This document shows, one piece after another, positions 2,785 to 25,478 of a stretch of 64,000 nucleotides of DNA. The notes below the pieces were generated by a model. It was not told the DNA's origin and did not search any database. It was given only the letters and a program-made list of their open reading frames with translations. The position numbers and the translations under genes were made by a program. Numbering within the stretch: position 1 is the first letter of the stretch; every line of letters begins with the position of its first letter. The stretch spans positions 8,359 through 72,358 of the forward strand of contig CAZOPW010000001.1 of NCBI GenBank assembly GCA_964581795.1, given 5' to 3'. The stretch comes from an uncultured Thermoplasmatales archaeon. GTDB lineage: Archaea; Thermoplasmatota; E2; DHVEG-1.

Positions 2785-2873
2785 ATCCCATCCGCGAGTG
2801 ATATATTATTTTCATCCCAATTACTACTTTATACGAAAAAGCAAACGCTATCATTTCTTTTATACCTTTTTTG

Positions 2874-2903
2874 TAGGTGCATATCCTTATACATGTGCAG
2901 GTA
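2874..2903. promoter_or_regulatory. Hexamer array (TAGGTG CATATC CTTATA CATGTG CAGGTA) abutting TATA (AAAGGTATAAAAG on gene strand) of the 507-aa surface-protein gene
   Basis: Same repeat family; located ~90-120 nt upstream of the 2784 start codon on the opposite strand. Confidence 0.45.
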
Positions 2904-2937
2904 ATAATACAAAAAAAGTAGAAAAATATATAATTTT

Positions 2938-5640: not shown

Positions 5641-5859
5641 CTTAATCCACCAATGATATTCATTTTTGCGAGGAGGATTATGTAAAAATCAATAATGACC
5701 AGTACAATAGGGTCGTCAATAAAATCTTCCAGTTAACACTGTTTACATTGAGTAACAATTACTAATTGGTTGTACCCATCTAAACCCATCCTCGTTAAGA
5801 ACTCAATTGGTGCTAGATTATTTAAACCTTACGTCAAAATATATTGTAAATAAAAAAAA

Positions 5860-7641: not shown

Positions 7642-7767
7642 ACTCGTTTTCGTTAAAATTTCCCTATCCGTTTTCAGGTATACTCAATTTAATACTTATT
7701 TTAATACTTTTTGTTATTATGTGAGTCAAAGTTCCAATTTCATTTACTTAATAATGTTTTTATAGGG

Positions 7768-8574: not shown

Positions 8575-8584
8575 GTATTGGATT

Positions 8585-9475
8585 ATGAGTGAGGATAAAA
8601 AGGAAGGTGGACAGCCTGATGCTACTGATTTTGATTTACAATTAGAATTATCTTCTTTAGTAGCAGACCAAGTTATTCCACAGTCTATTGCTGAGAAGCT
8701 TGAAAAAAAACTTGTTGAAAAACAAGTTGATATTACAAAAGATCAATTATATGCACTTGCTGAGAAAATCCATAATTTAATTCAAACGTATAAAGAAAAA
8801 GGTTCTTTACCTGAACCAACTAGTTCTACAGATTCTGTTAAACCTAATAAACAACAAGATAATGATTCAAATGATGAATCAAAAGATTCATCTTCATCTC
8901 GCTTTGAGGGGGAGATAGATGATGAAACTATTGAAGGATTTATGAGCAAGATTGGACAATTACAACAAAAAATCGATGAATTAGAACAACAAGGTATACA
9001 AGGTGAAGTAACTGATAAAAATCAGCCTTCATCATATAATGATATTAATCTACCGTATAATGAGCCTATTTCGACAAGTCATTTAATTACGGATCCATTG
9101 CAAAATATTCCATCTAATCCAGAGAGTATTATCGTATTAATGAACTGGCTTCAATATCTGGTGAATAGATGTGGTCATGATAATTTAGCTAATGTTTTAG
9201 ATTATTATGTTGAAGTTGATTGGATAACAGACGATGTTAAAATTAGTTTACTCGAATATGCTACAGGTATTACAGAGGGGAATAATTTAAAATCCGATAC
9301 TTCAAATAAAGGTGATGGGAAAAGTTCTAATCTTCATTCTAAAGATCATATTCAATCATATTTATACATTCAACGTCTAAAAGGAAAGAAATTTGAAAAA
9401 CATTTTGTAGAGAGAATTAATGGGGAACTTGCTCGTATTGAAAAAAAGGTTGACACCTATCATCATACACAATAA
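8585..9475 (+). CDS. flaD: Archaellum accessory protein FlaD/FlaE family
   Basis: C-terminal conserved FlaD/E-type domain (IIVLMNWLQYLVNRCGHDNLANVLDYYVEVDWITDDVKISLLEYATGI). Position between flaC and flaF. Confidence 0.65.
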   Translation: MSEDKKEGGQPDATDFDLQLELSSLVADQVIPQSIAEKLEKKLVEKQVDITKDQLYALAEKIHNLIQTYKEKGSLPEPTSSTDSVKPNKQQDNDSNDESKDSSSSRFEGEIDDETIEGFMSKIGQLQQKIDELEQQGIQGEVTDKNQPSSYNDINLPYNEPISTSHLITDPLQNIPSNPESIIVLMNWLQYLVNRCGHDNLANVLDYYVEVDWITDDVKISLLEYATGITEGNNLKSDTSNKGDGKSSNLHSKDHIQSYLYIQRLKGKKFEKHFVERINGELARIEKKVDTYHHTQ

Positions 9476-9566
9476 AAAAAATTTACTAATAATCTAGAAT
9501 TCTCTTCCTATATTGGCGTTGATTTCCTTTAAGGCTAGACTAATAATCAAAAGGATTGGTGAGCAC

Positions 9567-9992
9567 ATGGGGTTTTCAATTTCAGCAACAGCTGCAATTA
9601 TTGGAGTATCATTTCTTATGATACTTGAGATTTCAATGGGAACCCTCTTTCCAGTGATCACTAATATTGATGAAAGTTATGATAACATGAGAGAACGTGC
9701 GATTAATGAACTACAAACAGACATAGAAATACATAATATAAGTGTCCAGGCCAATAGTTCTCTTCATGATCTTTCAATTCAGGTTAAAAATACTGGTTCA
9801 ACAACAATAAAAGTATCGAATGTTGACTTATTGATCAATGGGACGTTATCTTCATTTACCTGTTCTAATCAATATTGGTTTCCTGAAAATACGTACGAAT
9901 TATCAGTTTATGGTTTATCTGGTTCGGGTTTAAAAAAAGTTAAAATAATTACATATAATGGAATTAGTGACTATGATACATATTCAACATAA
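9567..9992 (+). CDS. flaF: Archaellum protein FlaF (N-terminal TM helix + beta-rich domain); ORF track start 9513 likely too far upstream
   Basis: Internal Met at 9567 gives an N-terminus MGFSISATAAIIGV that parallels the MGFSVTGSHVV start of the next gene. Single N-terminal hydrophobic helix. Operon position (F before G in euryarchaeal fla operons). Confidence 0.6.
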   Translation: MGFSISATAAIIGVSFLMILEISMGTLFPVITNIDESYDNMRERAINELQTDIEIHNISVQANSSLHDLSIQVKNTGSTTIKVSNVDLLINGTLSSFTCSNQYWFPENTYELSVYGLSGSGLKKVKIITYNGISDYDTYST

Positions 9993-10049
9993 ACCATTAA
10001 CATGCACTTAAAAAAGAATGAAAAATAAATCTGATGGGATGATTAATTT

Positions 10050-10496
10050 ATGGGATTTAGCGTAACCGGTTCACACGTAGTATTCTTCATTGCTTCAGTT
10101 ATTGCAGCTGGTGCGGTATCTGGAGTTTTTCTTGCAGTGACATTTAATTTGAATACGAGTTTTTCCGAACGCGGAGATCGAGTCCAGGAAGTATTAGATA
10201 CAGAATTTGCCATAATTAACGATCCAGACCATATTCCTACTTCAGGTACCGACTATTTATTTTATATAAAGAATCTTGGGGCAAAACAGTTAGTAACTAC
10301 GGACGAAATTTTTACCATTTTTGTTGATGGAGAAGTTGTTACATCAGATAGTTATAATTTTTCAGTTGAAAAAATCAAACCTGGCGAGATTTCAACGATG
10401 TACATTGATTCAGCAATGATTGGAACAGGTTCACAAACGATTCGTGTTGTTGGACCCCAATCTGTTGTAGATGAATTTATATTCACTACTCCCTAA
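10050..10496 (+). CDS. flaG: Archaellum protein FlaG
   Basis: N-terminal hydrophobic helix (VVFFIASVIAAGAVSGVFLAV), ~150 aa, located between flaF and flaH. Confidence 0.6.
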   Translation: MGFSVTGSHVVFFIASVIAAGAVSGVFLAVTFNLNTSFSERGDRVQEVLDTEFAIINDPDHIPTSGTDYLFYIKNLGAKQLVTTDEIFTIFVDGEVVTSDSYNFSVEKIKPGEISTMYIDSAMIGTGSQTIRVVGPQSVVDEFIFTTP

Positions 10497-10525
10497 TTTA
10501 ATAAATTTATTGGAGATCTATTGGG

Positions 10526-11248
10526 ATGTCTGACTTAAGTAAAACAAAATCATTAGTCCTTGAGCGGAATGGGGAGAAAGATGGTTTTGCTGAACGATTT
10601 GGTCAAGAAATACCTGATGGATCATTCATTTTTCTAGAGGGAAAAGAGGGTGCTGGAAAAAGTATTTTTTGTCAACGGTTTGGTTATAGTTTTCTAAAGC
10701 AGGGGCATACATGTACATATATTTCAACACAGTATAGTGTGAAAAGTTTTTTGAGGCAAACAGCTTCAGTTGGTTATGATACAAGAAAATTTCTTATGAG
10801 TGGAAAGTTATTTTTTATATCTACTGAAGTTACACTCGCTGAACCAAAACCAAAGCATACATTTTTAGATGCTTTAACCACAACTAAAAAAATTTTTGAT
10901 CCAGAAATCATTTTTATTGATTCCCTTTCAACACTTTTAAATGAAAGTTTGAATAGAAAGAATCTCGTCGATTTAACAAGTTTCTTTAACAGATTGAAAG
11001 GGTCGGGTAAAATTATCATGGTGACAGCTAATCCCAATGATTGGGATAAAGAGATCCACAGTACGTTTCAGATGAACTGTGATATTCATTATCGAGTGGC
11101 TCAAGAAAACATGCCAGGTATTGGATTAGTCTATAAATTTTACATTGAAAAATTCAATGGTGCACGTAATAGATATGAACCTGCAACTACATTTAAAGTT
11201 CAACCGGGAGCGGGACTAACCATTGAAACAAGTGGTGTCGCATTCTAA
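10526..11248 (+). CDS. flaH: Archaellum protein FlaH (RecA/KaiC-like ATP-binding)
   Basis: Walker A GKEGAGKS; ~240 aa; immediately upstream of flaI. Confidence 0.8.
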   Translation: MSDLSKTKSLVLERNGEKDGFAERFGQEIPDGSFIFLEGKEGAGKSIFCQRFGYSFLKQGHTCTYISTQYSVKSFLRQTASVGYDTRKFLMSGKLFFISTEVTLAEPKPKHTFLDALTTTKKIFDPEIIFIDSLSTLLNESLNRKNLVDLTSFFNRLKGSGKIIMVTANPNDWDKEIHSTFQMNCDIHYRVAQENMPGIGLVYKFYIEKFNGARNRYEPATTFKVQPGAGLTIETSGVAF

Positions 11249-11260
11249 GGAGATTAGATT

Positions 11261-12892
11261 ATGACTAAGATGGATTCAGATGAGGAAAAACAATTAATTG
11301 AAAATAATCCGCATTTGAAAAAATATATTGATAACATCTCCTTGAAAATGAGTAAACCAACGTTTTATGTAAAAATTCCAAAAGAGGAAAAAGAAAATAA
11401 ATTCCCTAATCTTATTTATCCTACAAAAGGAATAGTATTTATCCATATGTATAGGACTCCAGAAATGGAGCAAATTGAATATCATGCAGTTGAACCAAAA
11501 TTAACTAATGATCAAATAAAAAAGCGTAATGCAGTTCTTGAACGAATGTATGAAAAAGCTCATTTTTATGCAAATATCAAAAGTCCTGACGATTTAAGAA
11601 AAGCTATCAGTACACTACTTGATAATATAACAGTAGTTGATGAATCAGCAACTTCACTTGATGAAGAAAAAAAAAGAGGGAAAATTAGGTTAACAAGTGA
11701 AGATAAAATCGCGATTAAATATGATATAACAAAAGAAATCATTGGTGGAGGACCACTTGAACCATTAATGCGTGATCCCAATATCGAAGATATACATATT
11801 TTAACAGGCGAAGATGTTCATTTAATCCATAAAGTGTTTGATTTAGTCCGAACTAATATTTACATTGATCCGAATTGGGCAAATTCTTTTTCCCAAGATT
11901 TCAGTGAAAAAATTGGAAGTCCCGTTAGTGACGGTGTACCAATCGCTGATGGCACACTTCCAGATGGAAGTCGTGTCAATATTATCCATCCAAATGATGT
12001 TAGTTTAAAAGGACCAAGTATGACGGTTCGAAAATTTAGTGAAACACCGATAAGTATCACGCAAATCATTAATTGGGGGACGATGAGTAGCTACATTGCT
12101 GCATATATTTGGATTGCTGTTCAATATGGAAGAAGTTTTTTTGTGTGTGGTGAAACAGCATCCGGAAAAACAACGACAACAAATGCAGTTATTCCCTTTA
12201 TTCCCCCAGATAGAAAAATTTACTCAGCGGAAAACACTCCTGAAGTTCAAGTGCCTCATCCTGTTTGGCAGCAATTACTTACAAGGACAACTGGGCCAAA
12301 AGAAAGCCATGTTGATTTAAACGATTTATTAAAAGCAGCATTACGATCTCGTCCAAATTATATTATACCTGGTGAAACCAGAGGCATCGAAGGACGAGTA
12401 GTGTTTCAAGCGATGCAAACTGGCCACCCTTGTATCACTACATTTCACGCTGGATCAGTAACAAAAGTTATCCAACGATTTACTGGTGATCCAATTCGTA
12501 TCCCTAAACCTTTCATGGACAATCTTGATTTTGTTATCATTCAGTTAGCAGTTGACAGAAAAGGAAAACGATTACGGCGAGTGATTTCTGTTGATGAAAT
12601 AGAAGGATATAATTCAGCTGTGGATGGTGTGATTACACGGAAAGCGTTCGAATGGAATTCCGCTTCAGATCAACATATGTTTAAGGCAAATCGAAATAGT
12701 TACATTTTAGAAGATCGTATTGCAAAGACTGCAGGATATGAAAATCCAACTGAAATTTATGATGAGCTTGATTTGCGGAAGCGGATTTTAGATCGAATGA
12801 TTGAAGAAAAAATCTTTGATTATTATGAAGTCGTTCAATTTATTTGGACGTATTTTAGAGAAGGCGTTGATGGTCTTCCAATAACCATATAA
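11261..12892 (+). CDS. flaI: Archaellum assembly/motor ATPase FlaI (type II/IV secretion ATPase superfamily), paralog 1
   Basis: Walker A GETASGKTTTTNA; conserved SFFVCGETASGKTT and RSRPNYIIPGETRG regions; 543 aa. Confidence 0.85.
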   Translation: MTKMDSDEEKQLIENNPHLKKYIDNISLKMSKPTFYVKIPKEEKENKFPNLIYPTKGIVFIHMYRTPEMEQIEYHAVEPKLTNDQIKKRNAVLERMYEKAHFYANIKSPDDLRKAISTLLDNITVVDESATSLDEEKKRGKIRLTSEDKIAIKYDITKEIIGGGPLEPLMRDPNIEDIHILTGEDVHLIHKVFDLVRTNIYIDPNWANSFSQDFSEKIGSPVSDGVPIADGTLPDGSRVNIIHPNDVSLKGPSMTVRKFSETPISITQIINWGTMSSYIAAYIWIAVQYGRSFFVCGETASGKTTTTNAVIPFIPPDRKIYSAENTPEVQVPHPVWQQLLTRTTGPKESHVDLNDLLKAALRSRPNYIIPGETRGIEGRVVFQAMQTGHPCITTFHAGSVTKVIQRFTGDPIRIPKPFMDNLDFVIIQLAVDRKGKRLRRVISVDEIEGYNSAVDGVITRKAFEWNSASDQHMFKANRNSYILEDRIAKTAGYENPTEIYDELDLRKRILDRMIEEKIFDYYEVVQFIWTYFREGVDGLPITI

Positions 12893-12921
12893 ATAAAGAA
12901 ATATTACAAATATGCGATGGG

Positions 12922-14598
12922 GTGGACTTGTTGGCTGATGACGACAAAATGACTGAGGAAGAAATTCAAGAATTGATTGATAAACATCCTCATCTTCAAA
13001 CATATTTAAAAAATATTGAAGTAAAGATGAAACGGCCTGAGTTTTTCAAAAAAATTCCGAAATCCAAAGAAAGTGAAGAATTTCCAAATCTAATTTACCC
13101 AACAAAAGGATCAGTTTTTATTCACATATACCGGCTTCCTGAAATGGATGAACGTATTTATCAGTCTATTGAACCTGAACTTGATGATGAAGCGGAAAAA
13201 AAATTCAAAGATATGTTGAAGATAATTGTAAAAAAAGCACCAGAGAAAAAAAGTGCTGTTTCTGACGATGAATTAAAAGAAATTTTTATTGAACTTATGA
13301 ATGAAATCATCGAGATTGATGAAAACGCATACTCTTATGAACCATTAGAAAAGAAAGGGTTGTTTAACAAACAGAAAATGGCAACAAAGATTAAAGCTAC
13401 TTCACCGCAAAAAGAAGCAATGAAATATTCTCTTATTAAGGAACAAATTGGTGGGGGACCACTAGAACCCTTTATGCGAGATATCTACTTGGAAGATATT
13501 CATATTATTGCTGGCGAAAATGTGCACGCAATTCATAAAGTATTTGATATGATTAAAACAAATATTTTGATTCCAAAAGAAGAATCATTTGTTTTTGCTC
13601 GGAAATTAAGTGAAAAGATGGGTGCTGCAGTAAGTGAAGCTCAACCAATTGTAGATGCTACGATGCCAGATGGCAGTCGAGGAAATTTAATTTATCCTGA
13701 ATCAGTAAGTATTAAAGGACCAAGTATTACTATTCGTAAATTTGCCGAAACCCCGATAAGTATCACGCAAATCATAAATTGGGGAACATTAAGTAGTGGA
13801 ATTGGAGCATATCTTTGGCTTGCATTACAATACGGGAGAAGTTTTTTTGTTTGTGGGGAAACCGCATCGGGAAAAACAACGACAACTAATGCAGTCATCC
13901 CATTCATACCTCCAGATAAAAAAGTTTACACTGCAGAAAATACTCCAGAACTTCATGTTCCTCATACTGTATGGCAGCAGTTATTAACTCGAACCGCAGA
14001 TACAGAAGAGGGGAGTGTTGACTTATTCGATTTATTAAAAGCAGCATTACGATCTCGTCCCGACTATATTATCCCCGGTGAAACTCGTGGTGCTGAGGGA
14101 AGTGTTGTTTTTCAAGCGATGCAAACTGGCCACCCTTGTATCACTACATTTCACGCTGGATCAGTAACAAAAGTTATCCAACGATTTACCGGCGATCCAA
14201 TCAATGTTCCAAAATCATTTATGGACAACCTTGATTTTGTGTTAATTCAAATGGCTGTGGAACGGAAAGGTCAACGTCTTCGTCGAGTACTTTCAGTTGA
14301 TGAAATCGAGGGATATAACAAAGCAGTCGATGGAGTAATGTCTCGGACTGCATTTGAATGGAAATCTGCTGAAGATCAACACCTGTTTCGAGCGAATAGA
14401 AATAGTTACATGCTTGAAGAACGCATTGCAAAGACTGCCGGTTATGAGGATCCCGCTGAAATTTATGAGGAATATGAATTACGCAAACACATCCTTGATA
14501 GAATGGTGGAAGAACAAATTTTTGATTACTACGAGGTATGTCAATTCATTTGGACTTTTTATCGAGAAGGGATTGAAGCTTTACCCATTTCGATTTAA
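12922..14598 (+). CDS. flaI: Second tandem FlaI-family ATPase paralog (558 aa)
   Basis: Same architecture and Walker A (GETASGKTTTTNA). About 60% identity to paralog 1 with a divergent N-terminal third. Contains an 80-bp stretch 100% identical to paralog 1 (14110..14189 vs 12404..12483). Confidence 0.8.
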   Translation: MDLLADDDKMTEEEIQELIDKHPHLQTYLKNIEVKMKRPEFFKKIPKSKESEEFPNLIYPTKGSVFIHIYRLPEMDERIYQSIEPELDDEAEKKFKDMLKIIVKKAPEKKSAVSDDELKEIFIELMNEIIEIDENAYSYEPLEKKGLFNKQKMATKIKATSPQKEAMKYSLIKEQIGGGPLEPFMRDIYLEDIHIIAGENVHAIHKVFDMIKTNILIPKEESFVFARKLSEKMGAAVSEAQPIVDATMPDGSRGNLIYPESVSIKGPSITIRKFAETPISITQIINWGTLSSGIGAYLWLALQYGRSFFVCGETASGKTTTTNAVIPFIPPDKKVYTAENTPELHVPHTVWQQLLTRTADTEEGSVDLFDLLKAALRSRPDYIIPGETRGAEGSVVFQAMQTGHPCITTFHAGSVTKVIQRFTGDPINVPKSFMDNLDFVLIQMAVERKGQRLRRVLSVDEIEGYNKAVDGVMSRTAFEWKSAEDQHLFRANRNSYMLEERIAKTAGYEDPAEIYEEYELRKHILDRMVEEQIFDYYEVCQFIWTFYREGIEALPISI

Positions 14599-14617
14599 TA
14601 CTTTTGGTTGAGCTAAA

Positions 14618-16372
14618 ATGGCGAAAAAAAAGGAAAAAAGAAACAAAAAAAAACATGAGTTTCTTGATGAACTCAAGGTTTCTTACCGTTTAATAGAAAA
14701 TAAAAAAAAGTTTTATACGACAGTATTACTTCCTTTCATATTCCTTGGAATATTAGTTTTTACTCTTCCTTTTTTGCTCCCTGTTTTTCTTCCAGTACCC
14801 GTTTCTTTTCATCCTGCTACATTTATTATTGGCGGTATTGTCCCTATTATTCTTGGTATTTTCTATCCTTATATTACATTTAAAAATAAAGAAACAGAAA
14901 TTGATAGTAACATGCATTTTTTTATCACACACCTCCGAGTTCTAGCAATTTCAGATCTTTCTTTAAAAGATATTCTAAACGTACTTGGTGGAAAAAAGGT
15001 ATATCAAAGCTTAGGTGAAGAAATCAAAAAAGTATCAATCCTCTCTACTCAATGGCGTTATCCAATGGCTAGTACACTTCATTTCGTTGCACTTAGGACA
15101 CCAAGTAAAATTCTAAAGGATTTTTTAGATCGATTCTCACAGAGTTTAGATAGTGGAGTTGAACATCGAGAATTCGTTGAAACTGAACAAGAAGCAGTTA
15201 TGCAAGATTATAAAACAATGTATGAAACAAGCAATGAAAACATCGTTATTTTAAACGAAGTGTATGTTAGTATGCTCATTGCGATTATTTTTGTAATGAG
15301 TTTTGGTATTGTATTACCAATAATTATGGGCGCTGAAAGTATGACAACGTATACGTATCTTTCTTCGTTCATGCTAATTGTTGCTGAGGGATTATTATTA
15401 TATTTATTAAAATCAATCATTCCTGAAGATTATATCTGGCATCAATCTGGTGAAAAAAGTGAATTGCAAAAAAAGATGACTAAATGGTTTACAAATTCAA
15501 TATTGCTTTCAATCATAATAGGTTCAGCTTTATTATACGCTAATTTTTCATTAAATCTGCCTGTGATTGCAGATCTCCCATTGGAAATACTTATTGCATT
15601 TGCGTTTTCTCCCTTGTTATTAGTAGGAGTGAAAACTATAATTGAGGAGGAAAATATATCAAGGAAAGAAAAAAATTTTCTTGGATTTTTAACAGGACTC
15701 GGATCTATTGCAACCATGAAAGGAGGGAAAGTGACCGAATCGGTTTACTATTTAAGTAGAAAGGATTACGGCATATTATCTAAATATATTCGCAGTTTAT
15801 ATAGACGTTTACGAACTCGAATTGATGATAATGCAGCATGGCAATGGTTTGGAGTTGATACAAATAGTAATTTCATTCAACGATCGAGTGAAATGTTTCG
15901 TGAAGCAACTTATGCAGCCGCAAATCCAACCAAGGTTACAAAAATGATCGCTGAAAACATGAGGAAAATCCTTGATCTTCGTAAAAAAAAGTTTTCCATT
16001 GTAAACACATCTATTGCATTATTCGGCGGTATCACTTTTGGTATTTCTTTTTCAATTTACGTTTCACTTGTCATTAGCAGACATTTAAATGATATCGTTT
16101 TAGAAACAGGAGACCCTTTTAGTCAACTAGACGGTATTAACATTGGAACACTCCTCTATACTGTTCCTCCTGAAACATATAATTTTATAGTATTAATCAT
16201 TTTTTTAGTGTTAATTATTCACTCTTTTATACTTGCTTACACCATAAAAGTAATCCGAGGAAGTCATACATATCTCACTTTTTTGTATTTTGTTCCATTC
16301 GTATGGATTATTTCTTTAACAAGTTGGGTTGTAGATATCTTTATTAGAGGAATGCTTACAGGCACACCTTAA
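14618..16372 (+). CDS. flaJ: Archaellum polytopic membrane platform protein FlaJ (TadC/GspF-like)
   Basis: 584 aa, multiple TM helices with large cytoplasmic loops; last gene of the operon after flaI. Confidence 0.8.
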   Translation: MAKKKEKRNKKKHEFLDELKVSYRLIENKKKFYTTVLLPFIFLGILVFTLPFLLPVFLPVPVSFHPATFIIGGIVPIILGIFYPYITFKNKETEIDSNMHFFITHLRVLAISDLSLKDILNVLGGKKVYQSLGEEIKKVSILSTQWRYPMASTLHFVALRTPSKILKDFLDRFSQSLDSGVEHREFVETEQEAVMQDYKTMYETSNENIVILNEVYVSMLIAIIFVMSFGIVLPIIMGAESMTTYTYLSSFMLIVAEGLLLYLLKSIIPEDYIWHQSGEKSELQKKMTKWFTNSILLSIIIGSALLYANFSLNLPVIADLPLEILIAFAFSPLLLVGVKTIIEEENISRKEKNFLGFLTGLGSIATMKGGKVTESVYYLSRKDYGILSKYIRSLYRRLRTRIDDNAAWQWFGVDTNSNFIQRSSEMFREATYAAANPTKVTKMIAENMRKILDLRKKKFSIVNTSIALFGGITFGISFSIYVSLVISRHLNDIVLETGDPFSQLDGINIGTLLYTVPPETYNFIVLIIFLVLIIHSFILAYTIKVIRGSHTYLTFLYFVPFVWIISLTSWVVDIFIRGMLTGTP

Positions 16373-16424
16373 CAATTAAGGAATTTTAATTTATATTTTT
16401 TCAAAAAAATAATGTATCTTATTA

Positions 16425-17081
16425 CTATAAATCAATAATTGTTTCTGTATAAGTTGAAGGGGTTGTGAAATCAAAAATTGCTGATATTCCTTGTTCAGGA
16501 ACGATTTTTCCCGAAACTGAGGATCTTGGTGCTATCCCTTCAAAACAAGCAGTTGTATTAACCAAAATACCAATCAGATCATTTCGATTTATGGAAGGAG
16601 TATCAACAGTGCAACTATTATCATTATCTCGAATTACTAAAACACCAAACTCCGTATTGCTTAAATTGCTCGTATTCAATGTTTGAAACAATCCATTTGT
16701 CACAGTTGTAGAAAAACTCTCATTATCAAATAAAAGAATTGGCATTTTTTGAGAATCAGATATTTGAAGACGTGCTTCACTTAAATCAATTGCTTCAGAT
16801 CCTGCAGTTGTTTTAACAAAAAAACAAAGCTGGGCGATCGATTCATTTGAAACATAACCACTCACATGAGTTAATCTCAGACCAGATGAAATATCTTTTA
16901 TTGTTTCCTGGCTTGTCTGCAATGCTTGTTGTTGCATAGAGTCCATTGTTTGAAATACAACAGATGCAGCAACTCCCGCGGAAATAATCATAGCAATAAA
17001 AATAATTAATGATCCAATTCCAATTGAAGCATGATCTTCAGTAGAGAACACACCCCCAGAGTATACTATTACCTTTCTCAC
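16425..17081 (-). CDS. flaB: Archaellin (FlaB family), 218 aa, divergent paralog
   Basis: Class III signal peptide / archaellin N-terminus HASIGIGSLIIFIAMIISAGVAASVVF. Confidence 0.85.
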   Translation of the reverse strand: MRKVIVYSGGVFSTEDHASIGIGSLIIFIAMIISAGVAASVVFQTMDSMQQQALQTSQETIKDISSGLRLTHVSGYVSNESIAQLCFFVKTTAGSEAIDLSEARLQISDSQKMPILLFDNESFSTTVTNGLFQTLNTSNLSNTEFGVLVIRDNDNSCTVDTPSINRNDLIGILVNTTACFEGIAPRSSVSGKIVPEQGISAIFDFTTPSTYTETIIDL

Positions 17082-17273
17082 CTCCTAGCAATGATGTGAG
17101 TGGTTCAATTAACTTATTTTAAGAACCCATCCAATGAGAAGGTAATACAGTAAGCAGGTTATAAATCTATGGTTAAAACAAAAAATAGAACAATAAAAAA
17201 AAATGAAAAAAATCAAAAGGAGGGATGTTTTTTCCAATCTCTTAAAAAGAGAGTGGAAGAAATGACATCTCTC

Positions 17274-18018
17274 TATTATTGTAGTTTATAGATTTGATCA
17301 ACGTATGTCATTGGTGTAGTAAACGAAATCACACCAGGTGACCCAATCTCAGGAATCACACGACCAAACACATCTGTTCGTGGTGGAAGTTGTGCATCAA
17401 ACAAATATGAAGTATTTGTACAAATATACAAAATCGCTTTATCCCCACGATTCAACACGGGATTACTCGCAGTAATCGAACTATCTTCATCCTGCAACAC
17501 ACCAATCGCAAACGTTTCAGCACCAGTCGTATTCCAATGATCTTCACCAATATCAAACATATCACCAGTCACATCACCAACAAAGGAAATATTGCCATCA
17601 CCAGTATCTGTCGCATTAGTATAGTTATAACGTACCAATGATTTTGTAGCACCGTTACTAATCAAGATATAAGTATTATTCAGATCGATATCATCCGAAC
17701 CTGGTCGAACCTTCACCACAACAGCAAGCCGAGACAAATTCTCAAGCTCAGTACTATTGGATTCATTTCGAACCCATCCAGAAACCTCAAAAACAGAAAT
17801 ACCACTACTCACCTCTTTCCGAGTTTTCTGGCCAGTACTCAACGCCTGAATCTGCACGGTATTGCTTGTAGAAACCAAAACCGATGCAGCAATACCTGCA
17901 ACCAAAACCATTGCAATAAACACAATCATTGCACCAATACCAATAGCAGCTTCATGATCTCGAATAAAATTCTTAACAAACATTCTCATTTCTATTCACC
18001 TCCTTATTGCAACTCCAT
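17274..18018. repeat. 745-bp perfect direct repeat, copy 1 (covers flaB-237 gene plus junction to the upstream archaellin gene)
   Basis: Nucleotide-identical to 19933..20677 by direct comparison of both ends and of the encoded proteins. Confidence 0.85.
17276..17989 (-). CDS. flaB: Archaellin (FlaB family), 237 aa, copy 1 of an identical pair
   Basis: AAIGIGAMIVFIAMVLVAGIAASVLV N-terminus. Protein 100% identical to the 19935..20648 ORF. Confidence 0.9.
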   Translation of the reverse strand: MRMFVKNFIRDHEAAIGIGAMIVFIAMVLVAGIAASVLVSTSNTVQIQALSTGQKTRKEVSSGISVFEVSGWVRNESNSTELENLSRLAVVVKVRPGSDDIDLNNTYILISNGATKSLVRYNYTNATDTGDGNISFVGDVTGDMFDIGEDHWNTTGAETFAIGVLQDEDSSITASNPVLNRGDKAILYICTNTSYLFDAQLPPRTDVFGRVIPEIGSPGVISFTTPMTYVDQIYKLQ

Positions 18019-18699
18019 TACATCATCAATATAAGAAGCGGGGGTTGTAAAACCAACAATTCCTGGTGAACCTTCCTCACAGACGACAATACCAGATACA
18101 TCAGTTCTTGGAAGTAATCCACCAAATACTTCGTCTGTATTTATTCCTAAAATCACGTGATCTCCAAAATTAATAATTGGATTGTCTCTTGTGCATGAAT
18201 CATCAGCATCATTTAAAACAATTACACTGAATGAATTTGCACTACCATATGTGCCACTGCCAAATACATCTCCGTTTACATTCGAAGAGTTAGTGTATGT
18301 ATCATCTGATCTCTCGTATGCTAATATATATTTCTCTGATGAATCTGATATTTCAATTATTGTTTCATGTAAATCAATATCTGGAGATCCTGCTTTTGAA
18401 GTTATCTCTATAGCCATTTTATCAATTGAACCAGAAGTATTATGACCTTCAATAGCTTCAACTTTCAATCCACTTGCTACTTCTGCGATAGTCTCCTGAC
18501 CAGTTTTTAACGCCTGCATTTCCAACCGCGTACTTGTTTGGATAAGTACAGATGCGGCAATACCTGCCACAAGAACCATGGCAATAAAAATAATCATTGC
18601 ACCTATCCCAATTGCTGCGGTATCTATCTTTAAATTCTTTCCTAATTTTCTACATCCCATCATCGGAACATCCCTCCTAAAAGTTACGTCTTGTAACAA
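18004..18699 (-). CDS. flaB: Archaellin (FlaB family), 231 aa
   Basis: AAIGIGAMIIFIAMVLVAGIAASVLI N-terminus; close paralog of 20663..21319. Confidence 0.9.
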   Translation of the reverse strand: MLQDVTFRRDVPMMGCRKLGKNLKIDTAAIGIGAMIIFIAMVLVAGIAASVLIQTSTRLEMQALKTGQETIAEVASGLKVEAIEGHNTSGSIDKMAIEITSKAGSPDIDLHETIIEISDSSEKYILAYERSDDTYTNSSNVNGDVFGSGTYGSANSFSVIVLNDADDSCTRDNPIINFGDHVILGINTDEVFGGLLPRTDVSGIVVCEEGSPGIVGFTTPASYIDDVMELQ

Positions 18700-18775
18700 T
18701 TAGGTTGTTTCTATCAACAATAAAACAAACGGTCTTATTATACCTTTTTTTTAGATAGCAATACAAGTGTTAAGG

Positions 18776-18799
18776 CAAATGCATATGCATATGAATATG
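18776..18799. promoter_or_regulatory. Tandem hexamer array (CAAATG CATATG CATATG AATATG) abutting TATA box of the 18699 archaellin promoter
   Basis: Same 6-bp periodic CANNTG-type repeat family. TATA-like GGTATAATAAG immediately downstream (gene strand). AGGAGGG SD before the ATG. Confidence 0.5.
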
Positions 18800-18858
18800 T
18801 TAAAAATCAAGAAATGAATTTTGTCTTGTTATAAAAAGGGTAAATATAGAGTCAATTG

Positions 18859-19843
18859 TGTAGTACGAATATTATTTCGTTTTTTCTTTTTCATATTTTC
18901 AACTCCATAAAATATCCTAAAAGACAACTTGGATCTAATTTTCTCATCAATGCCTCTGCAGGGTTCTCTCCGATCTCTAACCAGAGAGATCCATGTAACC
19001 GATGGTTATACCATTGAAGGAATTCTTCAATGGTGTCAAAACGCCATCGGTGCTTATCATATTCAAACCAGAATCGTTCCACTTTCCCATTGGTTTGAGG
19101 ATTATTCCTGCGAGAGGGAACAAAGTTGATATCATTTTGTTCCAGGAATTCCTGAAATTGTGATTTGCTCTTCGGATGATTTGAGTAAAACTGGGTACCT
19201 CGATCCGTGTTCACATCCTTGATGAATGCATGAAACAGATGACTGTGATCAATCACCTTTTGAAAAGTATCAATACTATGCCTTGCAGTTGCTTCAGGAT
19301 ACTCTGCTCCATGAAAGATGTATCGTGATGCATCATCCATCCAGACAATGGCATGTGGATGATCCACTGAGGTACGATGCCAGTCACCATGGATCAATGA
19401 AAAACTATGATCACGTTCATACCGGCGACGTTTCCGTTTCTTCTGTTTATTCGGATTTGGAATCGTTCTTTTCTTCTTCAGGAAATACTTATGGATCTTA
19501 TGATGTGGAATATGATGCCCTCTTCGTTTCAATTCATGAAAAAGAAGACGAGCTCCGAACCGTGTTTCCTACCAACTTGATCAATGATCTCCTTTTCCGT
19601 TGGAGTAAGTGGTTTTCCTCTTGGTCGTCTCCTCGGGTTCAAACAGGGAGGTTTTCCTGTTTTGCTTATATTCCTTTACTAATTGCTGAATCCTCCGGAT
19701 GCTTACTTCATAATGTCGAGCTAATCGTTCTGTGGTCCAATCTTTATCTTCCACTGCATGTTTGCAGATGTTCCTTATTTTCTTGTCTGTAAGCTTTGTC
19801 ACATCAGCATGTAATCTAAAGCGAAATAATTTTCATACTCTAC
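18859..19843 (-). mobile_element. IS481-like insertion sequence (~985 bp) inserted between the duplicated archaellin units
   Basis: rve/DDE-type transposase ORFs. Imperfect terminal inverted repeats: TGTAGTACGAATATTATTTCG at 18859..18879 versus the reverse complement of GCGAAATAATTTTCATACTCTACA at 19821..19843. Confidence 0.6.
18891..19802 (-). pseudogene. IS481/IS3-like DDE (rve) transposase with N-terminal HTH, interrupted by two in-frame stops
   Basis: HTH segment (TTERLARHYEVSIRRIQQLVKEY). rve motifs TDRGTQF and NPQTNGKVERF. The two ORF pieces are in the same frame, separated by TGA (19581..19583) and TAG (19569..19571). Confidence 0.6.
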
Positions 19844-19932
19844 AAAATATAGAATCAATAAAAAAAGATTTAAAGAAATAAAAAAGTGAAGGGTTCCAAA
19901 AGGATTGGTTTCGGAGTGCCCTTTTTTCAATT

Positions 19933-20677
19933 TATTATTGTAGTTTATAGATTTGATCAACGTATGTCATTGGTGTAGTAAACGAAATCACACCAGGTGA
20001 CCCAATCTCAGGAATCACACGACCAAACACATCTGTTCGTGGTGGAAGTTGTGCATCAAACAAATATGAAGTATTTGTACAAATATACAAAATCGCTTTA
20101 TCCCCACGATTCAACACGGGATTACTCGCAGTAATCGAACTATCTTCATCCTGCAACACACCAATCGCAAACGTTTCAGCACCAGTCGTATTCCAATGAT
20201 CTTCACCAATATCAAACATATCACCAGTCACATCACCAACAAAGGAAATATTGCCATCACCAGTATCTGTCGCATTAGTATAGTTATAACGTACCAATGA
20301 TTTTGTAGCACCGTTACTAATCAAGATATAAGTATTATTCAGATCGATATCATCCGAACCTGGTCGAACCTTCACCACAACAGCAAGCCGAGACAAATTC
20401 TCAAGCTCAGTACTATTGGATTCATTTCGAACCCATCCAGAAACCTCAAAAACAGAAATACCACTACTCACCTCTTTCCGAGTTTTCTGGCCAGTACTCA
20501 ACGCCTGAATCTGCACGGTATTGCTTGTAGAAACCAAAACCGATGCAGCAATACCTGCAACCAAAACCATTGCAATAAACACAATCATTGCACCAATACC
20601 AATAGCAGCTTCATGATCTCGAATAAAATTCTTAACAAACATTCTCATTTCTATTCACCTCCTTATTGCAACTCCAT
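19933..20677. repeat. 745-bp perfect direct repeat, copy 2
   Basis: Identical to 17274..18018; offset 2659 bp. Confidence 0.85.
19935..20648 (-). CDS. flaB: Archaellin (FlaB family), 237 aa, copy 2 of the identical pair
   Basis: Protein identical to the 17276..17989 ORF. Confidence 0.9.
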   Translation of the reverse strand: MRMFVKNFIRDHEAAIGIGAMIVFIAMVLVAGIAASVLVSTSNTVQIQALSTGQKTRKEVSSGISVFEVSGWVRNESNSTELENLSRLAVVVKVRPGSDDIDLNNTYILISNGATKSLVRYNYTNATDTGDGNISFVGDVTGDMFDIGEDHWNTTGAETFAIGVLQDEDSSITASNPVLNRGDKAILYICTNTSYLFDAQLPPRTDVFGRVIPEIGSPGVISFTTPMTYVDQIYKLQ

Positions 20678-21319
20678 CCAAGCATCAATGTATGATGCAG
20701 GAGTAGTAAAACCGACAATTCCTGCTGCACCTTCTTCACATATAACTAATCCAGATACATCAGTTCTTGGTAATAAACCACTGTTTACTGTAAAGACTGA
20801 ACTTGTATCAATGCCTAAAATAACGTGGTCTCCATCATTTATTACAGGTGTTGTACTTGTGCATGATTCATCAGCATCTTGCAAAACTGTAATTCCAAAC
20901 GCAGTTGAGGATCCCCAAGCTCCATTAGTAGATAGGTCTCCATCAATCGATGTTGAGTTTTTATAATCAGATCCATAACCGAGTACATATTTGTTTGTTG
21001 AATCGGATATTTCAATTATTGCCTGTTCTAAATCTATATCTGGAGCGCCTGCTTTTGGTCTAATTTCAATTGCCATTTTGGTAATTTTACCTGAAGCATT
21101 GTATCCTTCAACACCTTCAACAGTAATACCTGAGGATACTTCAGCGATTGTTTCTTGACCCGTTTTTAATGCTTGCATCTCTAAACGTGTACTTGTTTGC
21201 ACCAGCACCGATGCAGCAATTCCAGCAACAAGAACCATGGCGATAAAAATTATCATGGCTCCGATACCAATTGCTGCCATATTTTTTCTATTTGTAAGGT
21301 ATTTAGTCTTTCGTCCCAT
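20663..21319 (-). CDS. flaB: Archaellin (FlaB family), 218 aa, first gene of the array
   Basis: AAIGIGAMIIFIAMVLVAGIAASVLV N-terminus. Strong AGGAGGGGTAAT SD 12 nt upstream. TATA and hexamer array further upstream. Confidence 0.9.
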   Translation of the reverse strand: MGRKTKYLTNRKNMAAIGIGAMIIFIAMVLVAGIAASVLVQTSTRLEMQALKTGQETIAEVSSGITVEGVEGYNASGKITKMAIEIRPKAGAPDIDLEQAIIEISDSTNKYVLGYGSDYKNSTSIDGDLSTNGAWGSSTAFGITVLQDADESCTSTTPVINDGDHVILGIDTSSVFTVNSGLLPRTDVSGLVICEEGAAGIVGFTTPASYIDAWMELQ

Positions 21320-21408
21320 CCTTCTATTACCCCTCCTGACAGTTACACAATTGCAACCTTTCAGAGTGCTACCCCAATATTCCTCTCTGTTTTTATATAC
21401 TTTATTTG

Positions 21409-21438
21409 CATGTGAATATGCAGGTGAATGTGTAGGTG
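21409..21438. promoter_or_regulatory. Tandem hexamer array (CATGTG AATATG CAGGTG AATGTG TAGGTG) immediately upstream of TATA box of the archaellin array promoter
   Basis: Five consecutive 6-bp NANNTG units. TATA (TATATAAA on the gene strand, ~21393..21402) directly adjacent. Confidence 0.55.
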
Positions 21439-21583
21439 CCTATTCGATTGAGTGGCATGGTAATAATGAGGGCGCATACACAAAGTAATATTCAGTTCAA
21501 TAAATGAGAAAGTATGTTTTTCTTAAAGAAAATATTTTAATTTCAAATGAAATATTATTCAAATTGAATGAAATTCACTATTT

Positions 21584-22108
21584 TTATTTGAATATGTCCT
21601 TTTCCATTTTAGAAATCTGTTGTTCTAAATGCATAAGCTCTAAATCAACACCCATCTCTTTTAAAACATTTATAGATTCATCATCTAATTTTTGTGATAA
21701 CTCTTTTAAAAAAAAATGTCCTGCTTCATCGCCCAGGGAATTATTCAAATGAGTGATAATATCTTTTACCGCTGGACCCATTTTATTTATTTTCAATTCA
21801 TTTATATTACCCATGATGGTTATTGGTTCAGAATCTTCTAAATAAGTTGTGTCTTTCACTGTTATATTATCTAAAAATGAGTGTTGTTTTTTTAAATTAT
21901 TTAGTGTTGATCCCAATAAATAGACTGCATGGCTCTGTGTGGTCTTCCTTCCAGATATTAATAAAATCGTGTTTAAAACATCCTTAATAACTTTTATATT
22001 TTCCACCATATTTAGTCCCATTTCTTGATAATTATTTCTAATTGAATATCTGTAGAAATAAATATTGTTTTTCTTAAGAATAGAAATTGATTTTTTATAT
22101 TTTATCAT
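21584..22108 (-). CDS. Hypothetical cytoplasmic protein (174 aa) immediately upstream of the archaellin array
   Basis: Intact ORF; no recognisable motif. Confidence 0.35.
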   Translation of the reverse strand: MIKYKKSISILKKNNIYFYRYSIRNNYQEMGLNMVENIKVIKDVLNTILLISGRKTTQSHAVYLLGSTLNNLKKQHSFLDNITVKDTTYLEDSEPITIMGNINELKINKMGPAVKDIITHLNNSLGDEAGHFFLKELSQKLDDESINVLKEMGVDLELMHLEQQISKMEKDIFK

Positions 22109-22212
22109 TTTTCAATAATAAGGAATTTGGTTAGTATTTTATCAATTTCTTTTTTGTGTTTATTATAAATTATTAAATAATGGTAATACTATTTAGTCTT
22201 GGATGAGGTATT

Positions 22213-22656
22213 ATGGATGCAAAAAAGTATATCTTTGGAATAATGCTTATTATACTCTTCATTGCTTTCTCGGGTTGTGAGGAACAAGGAGTAACAACAC
22301 AACAATCATTTGATCATGTTCAATTCAACTCAGAAGTAGTGGATTTGGCATATGCTAACGTTACGTTTTTTGAAGAAAAGGAGTTTAATGACGAGATGGA
22401 GCCAATAATGGTAACAAAGGAAGTTGAGGTGAAATATCTTTTCCATAATAAATTGGATCGAACTATTAATGTAAGTGTCACAATTGAATTTTACTCTGAT
22501 CAAGACGAATTAATTTACCGAGTCGGGCCTCGAATAATTCATGGATTGTTAAAAGATTATACAGAAAAGCAATTCACAGATGTCAATATCGCCCGATGCA
22601 TTGGTGATAACGCAAATAATGTTTCATATGTTAAGATAATTGCATATGAAGTCTAA
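22213..22656 (+). CDS. Putative lipoprotein / secreted small protein
   Basis: Signal peptide followed by Cys (FIAFSGCEE), lipobox-like. Confidence 0.4.
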   Translation: MDAKKYIFGIMLIILFIAFSGCEEQGVTTQQSFDHVQFNSEVVDLAYANVTFFEEKEFNDEMEPIMVTKEVEVKYLFHNKLDRTINVSVTIEFYSDQDELIYRVGPRIIHGLLKDYTEKQFTDVNIARCIGDNANNVSYVKIIAYEV

Positions 22657-23180
22657 TCTCTATTTTTATTTTTTATGAAAATACCAATGATTAGCAAGAT
22701 CGACAATAGGTAAAATGGTTGAACGAACGGCGTATCATTAGATGAAGTATCTTCATATTCAATCGTTATTGTTTCTGTTCCAGAATTTGCATTTGTTTTT
22801 TGTATGCTAGTGTTGGTAGGACCGTAAGTTATAGTTAATATATGATTTCCTGTCCCAGAAAGAGGATATTCTTCGAATATAAATGTTTTTGTCTCCAAGG
22901 CATCGAATATATATTCCTCGGTTACGGAAAAATCTTCGTCATCAGTTAATTTTAGAGTTATTTGATCTGATGAAATATTTCCACGATTTGCCAAAGTAAC
23001 CATAATATCATATTTTACAACCAATTCTTGTCCAATAGTTTCTTCTTTAATTTTTGAATAATCAGTATTTACCAAGGTTAACTCATAATCCTGTGCCGAT
23101 ACTTGAAGGATCGTTATAAATAAAAGTAAACCAAGTGTTGATAAAATTAGACGTTTTAATATCTTATTTCTACCCCTCAT
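22653..23180 (-). CDS. Secreted protein with C-terminal TM anchor and basic tail
   Basis: N-terminal signal (LILSTLGLLLFITILQVSA); C-terminal hydrophobic helix + KNKNRD. Confidence 0.4.
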   Translation of the reverse strand: MRGRNKILKRLILSTLGLLLFITILQVSAQDYELTLVNTDYSKIKEETIGQELVVKYDIMVTLANRGNISSDQITLKLTDDEDFSVTEEYIFDALETKTFIFEEYPLSGTGNHILTITYGPTNTSIQKTNANSGTETITIEYEDTSSNDTPFVQPFYLLSILLIIGIFIKNKNRD

Positions 23181-23276
23181 CTCTATTCACCATTATTCTT
23201 TTGTTAGTGAACACTTAGAATGGAGGAGCATGTATTTAAGTAAGAGTATTTATTCATTTTATTGAGGTGAAATGAG

Positions 23277-23489
23277 ATGTTGAAATCACGCGGAATAAAA
23301 CGTGGTATAGAAGTATTTGTGAAAGATCCAGTTAATCCCAATGATCCTTTGAGAAAGGCCAGAGTGGTTAACACGTATCCTCATCCAAGTAGCTGGTTAG
23401 TTGTCCAATTTGAAAATGGTGAGATGAAAGAAGTTGACGAAAGTATGGTTACTACTATGTTTGAACGCAATCGAAAGTCCTATTTTTAA
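23277..23489 (+). CDS. Small hypothetical protein (70 aa)
   Basis: ATG ORF preceded by GAGGTGA SD-like sequence. Confidence 0.35.
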   Translation: MLKSRGIKRGIEVFVKDPVNPNDPLRKARVVNTYPHPSSWLVVQFENGEMKEVDESMVTTMFERNRKSYF

Positions 23490-23546
23490 TCGTGATATAT
23501 AAAATATTAAGTTATTTCATTGAATTATCAATCGCATAATTTTCCG

Positions 23547-25133: not shown

Positions 25134-25478
25134 ATGCACGAGCCGGATAATGAAAATATTTCAGCAGAGGTAAAGCGCCCTTTGGTAGTTCGGGCGTTAC
25201 GCAGAAGTAACGTACGAAAAAAGATAGCAGAATATCTTTTTGATATTAGTCCAAGTTATAGTTATACTTCTGAAATAGCCTATCATGTAAAAACGACTCC
25301 AACTAATGTGATAGGAGCTATTAGAGGGATGAAATCACGATATCGAGAGGATGAGTCATTAATAGGACTTGATCTTATCGAAGAAAGGAAGGGCGGATCA
25401 AACATTAAACTCTATGGTCTTACTCCTTTTGGAAAAGAGATTCTAGAGTCAATGTTAAAGGAGAAAAATAATCGTTAA
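25134..25478 (+). CDS. Small winged-helix transcription regulator (114 aa)
   Basis: wHTH-like core (IAEYLFDISPSYSYTSEIAYHVKTTPTNVIGAIRGMKSRY). Positioned between the archaellin and che clusters, with the hexamer array in its own promoter. Confidence 0.55.
   Translation: MHEPDNENISAEVKRPLVVRALRRSNVRKKIAEYLFDISPSYSYTSEIAYHVKTTPTNVIGAIRGMKSRYREDESLIGLDLIEERKGGSNIKLYGLTPFGKEILESMLKEKNNR

Follow-up and report, generated by a model that had tools for sequence, protein, structure and literature searches.

Probable concerted evolution, by gene conversion, of one archaellin gene in a duplicated two-gene unit of an uncultured Thermoplasmatales archaeon

The genome of an uncultured Thermoplasmatales archaeon (assembly GCA_964581795.1, contig CAZOPW010000001.1, positions 8,359 to 72,358; this whole stretch of 64,000 nucleotides is referred to here as the window) carries an array of archaellin genes, in which two tandem units of two genes each, A1-B and A2-B, are followed by a solitary archaellin gene, C. 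Our comparative analyses revealed that the A genes and the flanking regions of the two units group by position with those of a related organism, while the two B genes are identical within the window, nearly identical within the relative and clearly different between the two. This pattern is the classical signature of gene conversion, and thus of concerted evolution, confined to B. We consider this reading of the sequences to be probable, at roughly 0.8.

Results

The archaellin array and its exact repeat

Five archaellin open reading frames (ORFs) occupy 16425..21319 on the minus strand of the window, in the order A1-B-[IS]-A2-B-C, where IS denotes an insertion sequence. All five match PF01917 with E-values of 1e-27 to 1e-29 (97-102 bits, against a cut-off of 29.5), and the archaellins carry a class III (type IV pilin-like) signal peptide and a hydrophobic N-terminal helix. 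The genes, with the lengths of their products in amino acids (aa), and the two repeat copies are as follows:

20663..21319, minus strand: archaellin A1, 218 aa, first gene of unit 1 (PF01917, E 1.7e-27)
19935..20648, minus strand: archaellin B copy 1, 237 aa, identical to copy 2 (PF01917, E 5e-29)
18004..18663, minus strand: archaellin A2, 219 aa from the ATG at 18663 (PF01917, E 7.5e-28)
17276..17989, minus strand: archaellin B copy 2, 237 aa, identical to copy 1 (PF01917)
16425..17081, minus strand: archaellin C, 218 aa as the longest ORF, start uncertain (PF01917, E 1.3e-28)
19933..20677, no strand assigned: exact repeat copy 1, 745 bp (direct comparison)
17274..18018, no strand assigned: exact repeat copy 2, 745 bp (direct comparison)

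A preliminary description of this DNA, made from the sequence alone, had reported that 17274..18018 and 19933..20677 form a perfect 745-bp repeat. Direct comparison of the two segments, at an offset of 2659, yielded zero mismatches, and an exact match of this length is far beyond chance. The ORFs and the PF01917 matches likewise agree with the gene order that had been described for the minus strand, a tandem two-gene unit plus a solitary divergent archaellin, and the partner A genes are, as had been proposed, diverged yet paralogous, with 70% nucleotide and 68% protein identity between A1 and A2. The partner gene that had been given as 231 aa is a real gene, but its length has to be revised: the 231-aa ORF, from a TTG at 18699, is the longest reading, and the real A2 product most likely has 219 aa (18663..18004), since MMGCRK is the start of its orthologues and the ATG at 18663 has a GGAGGG ribosome-binding site in front of it.

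The repeat comprises the last 15 nt of A, the 14-nt spacer between A and B, the entire B gene and 2 nt past its stop codon. Beyond the repeat on the 5' side, the units are ~80% identical over ~110 nt of the 3' end of A, with lower identity in the middle of A, while downstream of B they have no homology to each other. The only other long repeat in the window is a pair of ArlI genes with 76% identity.

The age of the duplication and the probable homogenisation of B

The closest long relative, L001, is a 33.5-kb metagenome contig from an independent assembly (ENA ERZ10759792). Its array has the order A1-B-A2-B-C, with a 265-bp spacer between the units and without the IS. Two other relatives contribute a single unit each: L002 is a related metagenome-assembled genome (MAG; GCA_018335125.1) with the array A1-B-C, and L003 is a contig that begins 128 bp upstream of A2 and is uninformative on the number of units. 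In a protein tree, the A1 proteins of the window, L001 and L002 cluster at 87-89% identity, and the A2 proteins of the window, L001 and L003 cluster at 76-84% identity, the A2 protein of the window being 76% identical to its orthologues in L001 and L003. Identity between the A1 and A2 clades is 66-70%. Since A1 and A2 each have orthologues of their own, and since the synonymous divergence (dS) between them is ~1.3, the duplication of the unit is, judged from these sequences, older than the split of the window organism from L001, L002 and L003.

The B genes group differently, by genome, with protein identities of 100% within and 88% between the genomes. At the nucleotide level, B1 and B2 are 100% identical in the window, the two B genes of L001 share an exact run of 712 bp and have one synonymous difference (99.9% identity), and the B genes of the window and of L001 are 85% identical to each other. 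The dS of B is therefore 0 within the window and 0.006 within L001, as compared with 0.62 (68 synonymous differences) between the window and L001.

A quartet site-pattern test, in which units 1 and 2 of the window and units 1 and 2 of L001 were aligned and the informative sites were counted, located the change between these two patterns. Across the region upstream of A and the A gene itself, grouping by position is supported by 100 sites and grouping by genome by 12, while from 20656 to the stop codon of B ~112 sites support grouping by genome and 0 by position. The first change of signal falls at the A/B junction, between 20679 and 20656, and the second at 19930-19935, the by-position pattern being back from 19930 downward. 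The promoter regions and the downstream spacers of the two units also group by position between the window and L001. The 5' end of the homogenised tract lies within ~10 nt of the same place in the window and in L001, adjoining a residue difference between A1 (IDAW / IDTW) and A2 (IDDV / IDPV). The near-coincidence of this end in both organisms suggests that the barrier to the tract has been stable since before their split.

We also considered whether the direction of conversion could be read from an extra TAA at the end of B2 in the window (CAATAATAGAGAG, as compared with CAATAGAGAG in L001 and L002), which would have pointed from B1 to B2. This argument was dropped, since B2 of L167, a Logan contig (SRR6201607) from a relative at 88% nucleotide identity, has the same TAATAG.

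Related arrays

The closest database relatives of these archaellins belong to uncultured Thermoplasmatota or Thermoplasmatales MAGs. The survey combined an alignment-based profile scan of the GTDB species representatives, which gave 78 loci, with contigs found by exact-protein look-up. The best relatives in the profile scan had at most 59% identity, and none was close to the window organism. An exact look-up of the B protein and of the 219-aa A2 in a public gene index returned no record, while the 218-aa form of A2 was recovered through a homologue search; a scan of genome contigs with the single B protein found zero relatives, and a scan of metagenome contigs with A2 found no conspecific contig, the best match being 78% identical.

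The arrangement A-B-A-B(-C) was found in ten loci and A-B-C in about nine. The adjacency of A and then B is invariable, with 11-20 nt between the genes, and in most related loci the array is closed by a C-type gene. The longest exact runs between units 1 and 2 are 745 bp in the window, 712 bp in L001, 854 bp in L023, 1357 bp in L013 and 1420 bp in L021. All of these runs, found in 5/10 two-unit arrays, cover B, and their reach into A varies. The arrays of L006, L008, L010, L011 and L015 are mosaic or diverged; in L006, the copies of B are 94% identical and those of A 84%. Outside the clade of the window and L001, the A and B paralogues both cluster by genome, which would fit long-term concerted evolution of a conserved two-unit array.

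Two contigs from the survey deserve a separate remark. L029 (CAYUZU010000074.1), a 3.4-kb contig with A, B, A and C-type archaellins, is filed in an 'uncultured Planctomycetales bacterium' MAG, most likely by a binning error, as its layout and match identities almost duplicate those of the Thermoplasmatales locus L028. In L004 (JGI 3300034152; 92..1868), where B is 67% identical, a 308-aa transposase gene of a different family (DDE_Tnp_1) lies 146 bp after B, and the genes beyond it are not archaellum genes; the AT-rich stretch 3' of B may repeatedly serve mobile elements as a site of landing or breakage.

Putative promoters, leaders and EarA

Each unit is preceded by its own putative promoter region, and a terminator-like feature was noted downstream of B1:

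21390..21434, minus strand: unit 1 promoter, with five tandem TNCANN hexamers (21405..21434) and a TATA-like box (21390..21404), from reading of the sequence
18664..18801, minus strand: unit 2 promoter and leader, with four hexamers, a TATA-like box and the GGAGGG ribosome-binding site
19860..19888, minus strand: T-runs 3' of B1 and upstream of the IS, resembling archaeal terminators, from reading of the sequence

The hexamers upstream of A1 are TACACA, TTCACC, TGCATA, TTCACA and TGCAAA. Those upstream of A2, four tandem TNCATA-like hexamers at 18778..18801, are AACATA, TTCATA, TGCATA and TGCATT, with the TATA-like box at 18734..18752. Both hexamer arrays stand directly upstream of the TATA-like box. 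The unit 1 promoter region is nearly invariant in L001, L002 and L086, the last being a conspecific contig from the JGI metagenome 3300022699 that matches window 23532..20579 at 97.4% identity. Between the window and L001 the promoter and leader of A2 hardly vary, and this block has also been conserved in L003 and L087. The 5' leaders of units 1 and 2 thus differ from each other, while each is near-invariant among its own orthologues and more conserved than the coding sequences. These distinct conserved leaders suggest that the two units are separately regulated. A search of 16000..22500 against Rfam, with E-values up to 1, gave zero matches, and hence the conserved leaders of A1 and A2 match no described RNA family.

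A gene for EarA (PF07381, 90 bits) is located at 25134..25478, ~4 kb upstream of the array. EarA binds TACATA boxes in Methanococcus, and such boxes have been searched for in Thermococcales (PMC5512572, PMC10665913). The promoters known to be activated by EarA in Methanococcus and Pyrococcus likewise have arrays of 6-bp boxes immediately 5' of the BRE (B recognition element) and TATA box of the first archaellin gene, with the EarA gene nearby (PMC5512572, PMC10665913). The window differs from them in having two promoters, one per unit, each with an array, and in having boxes that are TNCATA-like and conserved in orthologues, with few exact TACATA matches. From their resemblance to the TACATA consensus, the hexamers would be EarA-type boxes.

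The 14-nt spacer between A and B contains a GGAGGTG ribosome-binding site for B, and with so short a distance B is most likely co-transcribed with A. The C gene has its own upstream region of 194 bp. The T-runs downstream of B1 belong to a part of the spacer that is homologous to the B1-A2 spacer of L001, and they may function as a terminator.

The IS481-like element between the units

The segment between B1 and A2 contains a defective insertion sequence with the following features:

18857..19844, minus strand: IS481-like insertion sequence, 988 bp (full-length homology with the L007 copy)
19822..19844 and 18857..18879: terminal inverted repeats, imperfect, ~22 nt, TGTAGAGTATGAAAATTATTTCG and TGTGTAGTACGAATATTATTTCG
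19845..19859, minus strand: target-site duplication, left copy, ATTGATTCTATATTT
18842..18856, minus strand: target-site duplication, right copy, ATTGACTCTATATTT
~19802..18891, minus strand: transposase pseudogene (rve domain; frameshifts and a nonsense codon)

L007 is a contig from JGI 3300022699 which, by its 99.0-99.5% identity with window 2810..7733, comes from the same species as the window organism. It contains an intact copy of the element, also 988 bp long (3040..4027), between a 900-aa DUF2341/Laminin_G_3 gene and a PAS-domain gene. The two elements are 93.4% identical over their exact full length, with the ends TGTAGAG... and ...CTACACA. This homology shifts the limits of 18859..19843 that had been drawn for the IS-like segment in the preliminary description, which was right on the presence of the element between the units and on its distance from the hexamer array (~60 bp, measured here as 55 bp). 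The L007 element is flanked by a perfect 15-bp duplication, TCAAAATATATTGTA, a sequence that is single and empty at window 5834..5848; in the window, the target duplication is also 15 bp, with copies that match at 14/15 positions. Only one copy of the IS is present in the 64 kb. The two copies must derive from different sublineages, since they are 93.4% identical while their chromosomal flanks are 99% identical.

An rve integrase core was found in the inter-unit segment. The best NCBIfam match is the IS481 model NF033577, with 151 bits (E 4e-44; model positions 7-275 of 284) for a repaired 303-aa reading and 108 bits for a 213-aa fragment of the transposase. The 224-bit cut-off of this model was reached neither by the transposase of the window nor by its intact relatives P0121 and P0123; because even intact relatives score under it, we label the element 'IS481-like', as a divergent archaeal subgroup. 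The intact relatives, many of which were found by homologue search, are single ORFs of 303 aa. As compared with L007, the transposase of the window has an extra A (+1) at 19656..19665, and a missing base (-1) together with a GAG-to-TAG change at 19564..19579, where the nonsense codon replaces a conserved Glu. Like members of the IS481 family, the element is ~1 kb long, encodes a single ORF of ~300 aa with an N-terminal helix-turn-helix and an rve (DDE) core, has inverted repeats that start with TGT, makes a long, 15-bp target duplication and is polymorphic for presence and absence between conspecific strains. Unlike typical members, it encodes a transposase below the NF033577 cut-off, and the window copy is a pseudogene. 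This polymorphism is of local interest only.

The insertion site is unoccupied in L001, whose spacer aligns with that of the window on both sides of the IS once the element and one copy of its target duplication have been taken out. A comparison with a related genome lacking the IS had been suggested earlier, and L001 answers to it: the order A1-B-A2-B-C is the same, the spacer is empty and the B copies have been homogenised separately. The IS was inserted after the B1 T-runs, with 55 bp left between its right end and the hexamer array (18778..18801) of A2 and ~105 bp to the TATA-like box further downstream, and the A2 promoter block is intact. The idea that the IS might serve as an active recombination partner finds no footing here, as the transposase is broken, the element is single-copy in the window, and the B1 T-runs and the A2 promoter are intact. 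The IS is most likely a defective passenger in the one dispensable stretch of the spacer; it would be near-neutral. The three transposase lesions and the mismatch in the target duplication, as compared with 0 differences in the 745-bp B repeats, may hint at conversion continuing after the insertion, although this argument is weak because the lesions may predate transposition.

Properties of the individual archaellins

The B protein passes the NCBIfam model NF006325 (210.7 bits, cut-off 210). The TIGR02537 archaellin/pilin N-terminal domain (cut-off 20 bits) scores 23 in B and 21.5 in C, and with 15.4 slightly under the cut-off in A1. The hydrophobic motif AIGIGAMI(V/I)FIAMVLVAG is kept in A1, A2 and B, while C has SIGIGSLIIFIAMIISAG. 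C is divergent and solitary: it is 35-39% identical to A and B, is separated from B2 by the 194-bp spacer, and has orthologues of 80-84% identity in L001, L002 and L003.

The numbers of N-X-S/T sequons are nine in B, five in C and two each in A1 and A2, and of the archaellins B probably bears the most N-glycans and is the most exposed at the surface. B also has an unusual composition at third codon positions (T3 0.54, G3 0.24, A3 0.17, C3 0.05). Its value of (G3+T3)-(A3+C3), +0.55, is the extreme among 51 ORFs of the window, with a runner-up at +0.28 and most ORFs between -0.17 and +0.18; A1 and A2, which are presumably co-transcribed with B, are free of this skew. The skew is also present in the B orthologues of L001, L002, L003, L006 and L010, and not in those of L008, L011, L014-L019, L021 and L023. 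Since the orthologues differ in this respect across genomes, the skew does not simply track homogenisation.

The A1 protein is identical in L086 (2216..2872), although 14 bases differ within the gene. All 14 differences are therefore synonymous, which means that A1 is under strong purifying selection. Between the window and L001, the non-synonymous divergence (dN) is 0.16 for A2 and 0.065 for A1, so that A2 has evolved about twice as fast as a protein.

Neighbouring archaellum genes

A set of archaellum genes at 7825..16372, convergent with the array, encodes ArlC, ArlD/E, F/G-like proteins (two short archaellin-like proteins), ArlH, two ArlI-like ATPases and ArlJ. The corresponding domain matches are FlaC, FlaD/E, a KaiC-like ATPase (ArlH), two T2SSE domains (ArlI-like) and T2SSF (ArlJ). 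The tandem ArlI/FlaI-like T2SSE ATPase genes (11261..12892 and 12922..14598, plus strand) encode 543 and 558 aa and are 76% identical in DNA over 1.1 kb. This pair is also found in L001 and L006 and is thus an old, conserved duplication of the motor ATPase.

Discussion

Our analyses describe an array in which one gene of a duplicated two-gene unit has remained identical between its copies, while its partner has diverged. The preliminary description had left the choice between gene conversion and a very recent duplication. Conversion is the part of this proposal that held, and recent duplication, with A1 and A2 orthologues in L001 and a dS of ~1.3, the part that did not. Had the whole A-B unit, or only B, been duplicated in tandem very recently, the copies would be identical for want of time to diverge, as the exact identity across 745 bp would allow, and the near-whole-unit identity in L013 and L021 (1357 and 1420 bp) could indeed be recent in those genomes. 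However, A1 and A2 are only 70% identical in nucleotides and each has an orthologue at the same position in L001, both B positions are already filled in L001, L006 and eight other lineages, and the exact tract directly abuts sequence of 70-80% identity. The abrupt passage from exact tracts to 60-70% identity tells against duplication alone, and the copying of B alone into a site that already held a B gene would be equivalent to gene conversion. Recent duplication is thus practically ruled out for the window, because the A genes and the spacers are positionally orthologous. Purifying selection alone fares even worse as an explanation of the identical copies. The B protein is conserved (dN 0.07 between the window and L001), but selection on the protein cannot account for the identity of B, since the identity within genomes extends to synonymous sites and to the non-coding 14-nt spacer, at a dS of 0.62 between genomes; this reading is refuted.

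A more serious concern is the assembly itself: the second unit might be absent, or B copies that are merely similar might have been made identical by repeat collapse or polishing. Short-read assemblers can walk one collapsed node twice, the exact B protein is without a record in the public gene index, and related contigs break at the repeat. Yet the same five-gene order occurs in independent assemblies, including one in which the copies differ (L006), and each copy in the window has unique flanks, with A1 and A2 on one side and the IS spacer and the C spacer on the other. Moreover, two contigs end inside the repeat copies, which is what a genuine branching of the read graph would produce. L168, a Logan contig from SRA run SRR15425353 that matches window 18891..17989 at 100% identity, starts within the IS, 35 nt from its right end, and extends over the target duplication and the promoter and coding sequence of A2 to exactly 30 nt inside repeat copy 2, while L086 ends 99 nt inside repeat copy 1. 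The Logan graph was presumably built with k = 31, in which case 30 nt equals k-1, the expected stop of a unitig at a branch; taken together, the two contigs stop k-1 or k nt into the repeat. These contig ends support a true two-copy repeat, and a graph loop B-spacer-IS-A2-B implies the tandem arrangement. We therefore regard an assembly artefact as unlikely.

Several points nevertheless weigh against gene conversion confined to B, or limit its reach. A collapsed node walked twice would make the copies identical by construction, so that their true identity is perhaps somewhat below 100% and a small number of hidden differences between them is possible; the same caveat applies to L001 and to the surveyed MAGs, which are short-read assemblies. 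L167 runs from the 3' end of A2 through B2 to C, unbroken at the 3' repeat boundary, and that organism may have two differing copies of B or a single one. The sharp quartet test has one comparison genome, L001, as L002 and L003 give single units. The clustering by genome in most other lineages also fits recurrent independent duplication, so that the two-unit state need not be old across the clade as a whole. Finally, the frequency and direction of conversion and the cause of its boundary are deduced from the pattern.

The repeats might also act as a functional switch, in which recombination between the B copies deletes or re-amplifies IS-A2-B and so produces phase-like or copy-number variation. 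Direct repeats of 745 bp are good substrates for RadA-type recombination, and the A1-B-C array of L002, which combines an A1-type gene with a downstream spacer of the B2-C type, has the structure predicted for the deletion product. The A gene of L002 falls inside the A1 clade, which means that A2 was either lost or not assembled, and the 120 listed homologues of A2 include no A2-type protein of an NCBI MAG, which slightly favours true loss. A recombination-deletion in a two-archaellin operon has been reported in Halorubrum lacusprofundi ACAM 34 (PMC7349177). However, L002 could equally reflect a collapse or a skipped loop in assembly, and a deletion is irreversible without a donor, so that it would be loss rather than switching. 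The IS is defective and single-copy in the window, the separately conserved A1 and A2 promoters and the strong purifying selection on A1 indicate that both units are maintained, and recombination here homogenises the copies rather than diversifying them. A switch is accordingly given little weight.

Based on the comparisons above, gene conversion of B probably operated as follows. An ancient duplication produced the two tandem bicistronic units, A1-B and A2-B, followed by the solitary C, and A1 and A2 have since diverged into separate orthologous lineages, each with a conserved promoter and leader. The B copies, the 14-nt spacer and the last 15 nt of A would be kept identical by non-reciprocal homologous recombination between the direct repeats, within one chromosome or between chromosome copies. 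On the 3' side, the tract would be limited by the point where the homology of the units stops, 2 nt past the B stop codon. On the 5' side, A1 and A2 may be too different (~80%, then ~70%) for the heteroduplex to extend, or selection may reject a converted A. The outcome would be concerted evolution of B alone. We infer both the recombination mechanism and the cause of the tract boundary from these patterns. The IS481-like element arrived later. It made its 15-bp target duplication where the spacer from B1 to A2 is variable, between the T-runs and the region of the A2 activator boxes and TATA box, and would subsequently have lost the transposase reading frame.

The case is an instructive but ordinary instance of concerted evolution. 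The duplicated flagellin genes flaA and flaB of Campylobacter reportedly evolve in concert, as Meinersmann and Hiett are said to have described in 2000. These are also tandem filament paralogues, each with its own promoter, whose copies resemble each other more within a genome than they do across strains, owing to intragenomic recombination or gene conversion. The present genes differ from them in being archaellins, which are related to type IV pilins and not to flagellin, in forming a two-gene repeat with one gene homogenised, and in recurring across Thermoplasmatota lineages. Our literature search found no paper that connects archaellins with concerted evolution or with gene conversion among their paralogues.

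In haloarchaea, archaellins have multiplied by duplication, two divergent archaellins co-assemble, and ecoparalogues and gene loss by recombination or deletion have been described (PMC7349177). Divergent archaellins are co-transcribed there, paralogues are differentially regulated and additional operons have arisen by duplication (PMC7349177, PMC7002104). The window resembles Halorubrum lacusprofundi flaB1/flaB2, Halobacterium arlA1A2/arlB1-3 and the ecoparalogues of Haloarcula marismortui in its duplicated archaellins (PMC7349177, PMC7002104), while the descriptions of these haloarchaeal systems contain neither an exact-identity tract nor a pattern of one gene homogenised and its partner diverged. 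In the filament of Methanocaldococcus villosus, ArlB1 and ArlB2 alternate (PMC8821640). As in M. villosus, the array has two adjacent archaellin genes whose products could co-polymerise, and the adjacency of A and B fits equimolar co-expression; by this analogy, an A-B heteropolymer is a possibility in the window organism.

We tentatively extend this analogy to the conversion tract, in a proposal to which we attach a rather low probability. The A-B unit may encode a two-component filament, with B as the common, heavily glycosylated subunit and A1 and A2 as alternative partners, so that conversion of B only is favoured. If so, A1 and A2 would be expressed from two differently regulated promoters, in the manner of ecoparalogues, and conversion of B alone would be more than a by-product of similar sequences, being favoured since both types of filament need one identical scaffold subunit. 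Selection against the conversion of A would then set a stable tract boundary, and the third-position G+T skew would mark B as the most expressed, or the most recombination-exposed, gene of the array.

To conclude, the array provides a clean sequence-level case of concerted evolution of one gene in a duplicated two-gene unit, recurring in an uncultured Thermoplasmatota clade. It cautions against taking identical archaellin paralogues as evidence of recent duplication. Such arrays can be expected to break or collapse in short-read MAGs, and the archaellin copy numbers given there are unreliable. The structure of the array also offers a testable idea for why euryarchaeal-type arrays contain several archaellins, namely that a constant subunit may be combined with alternative, separately regulated partners.

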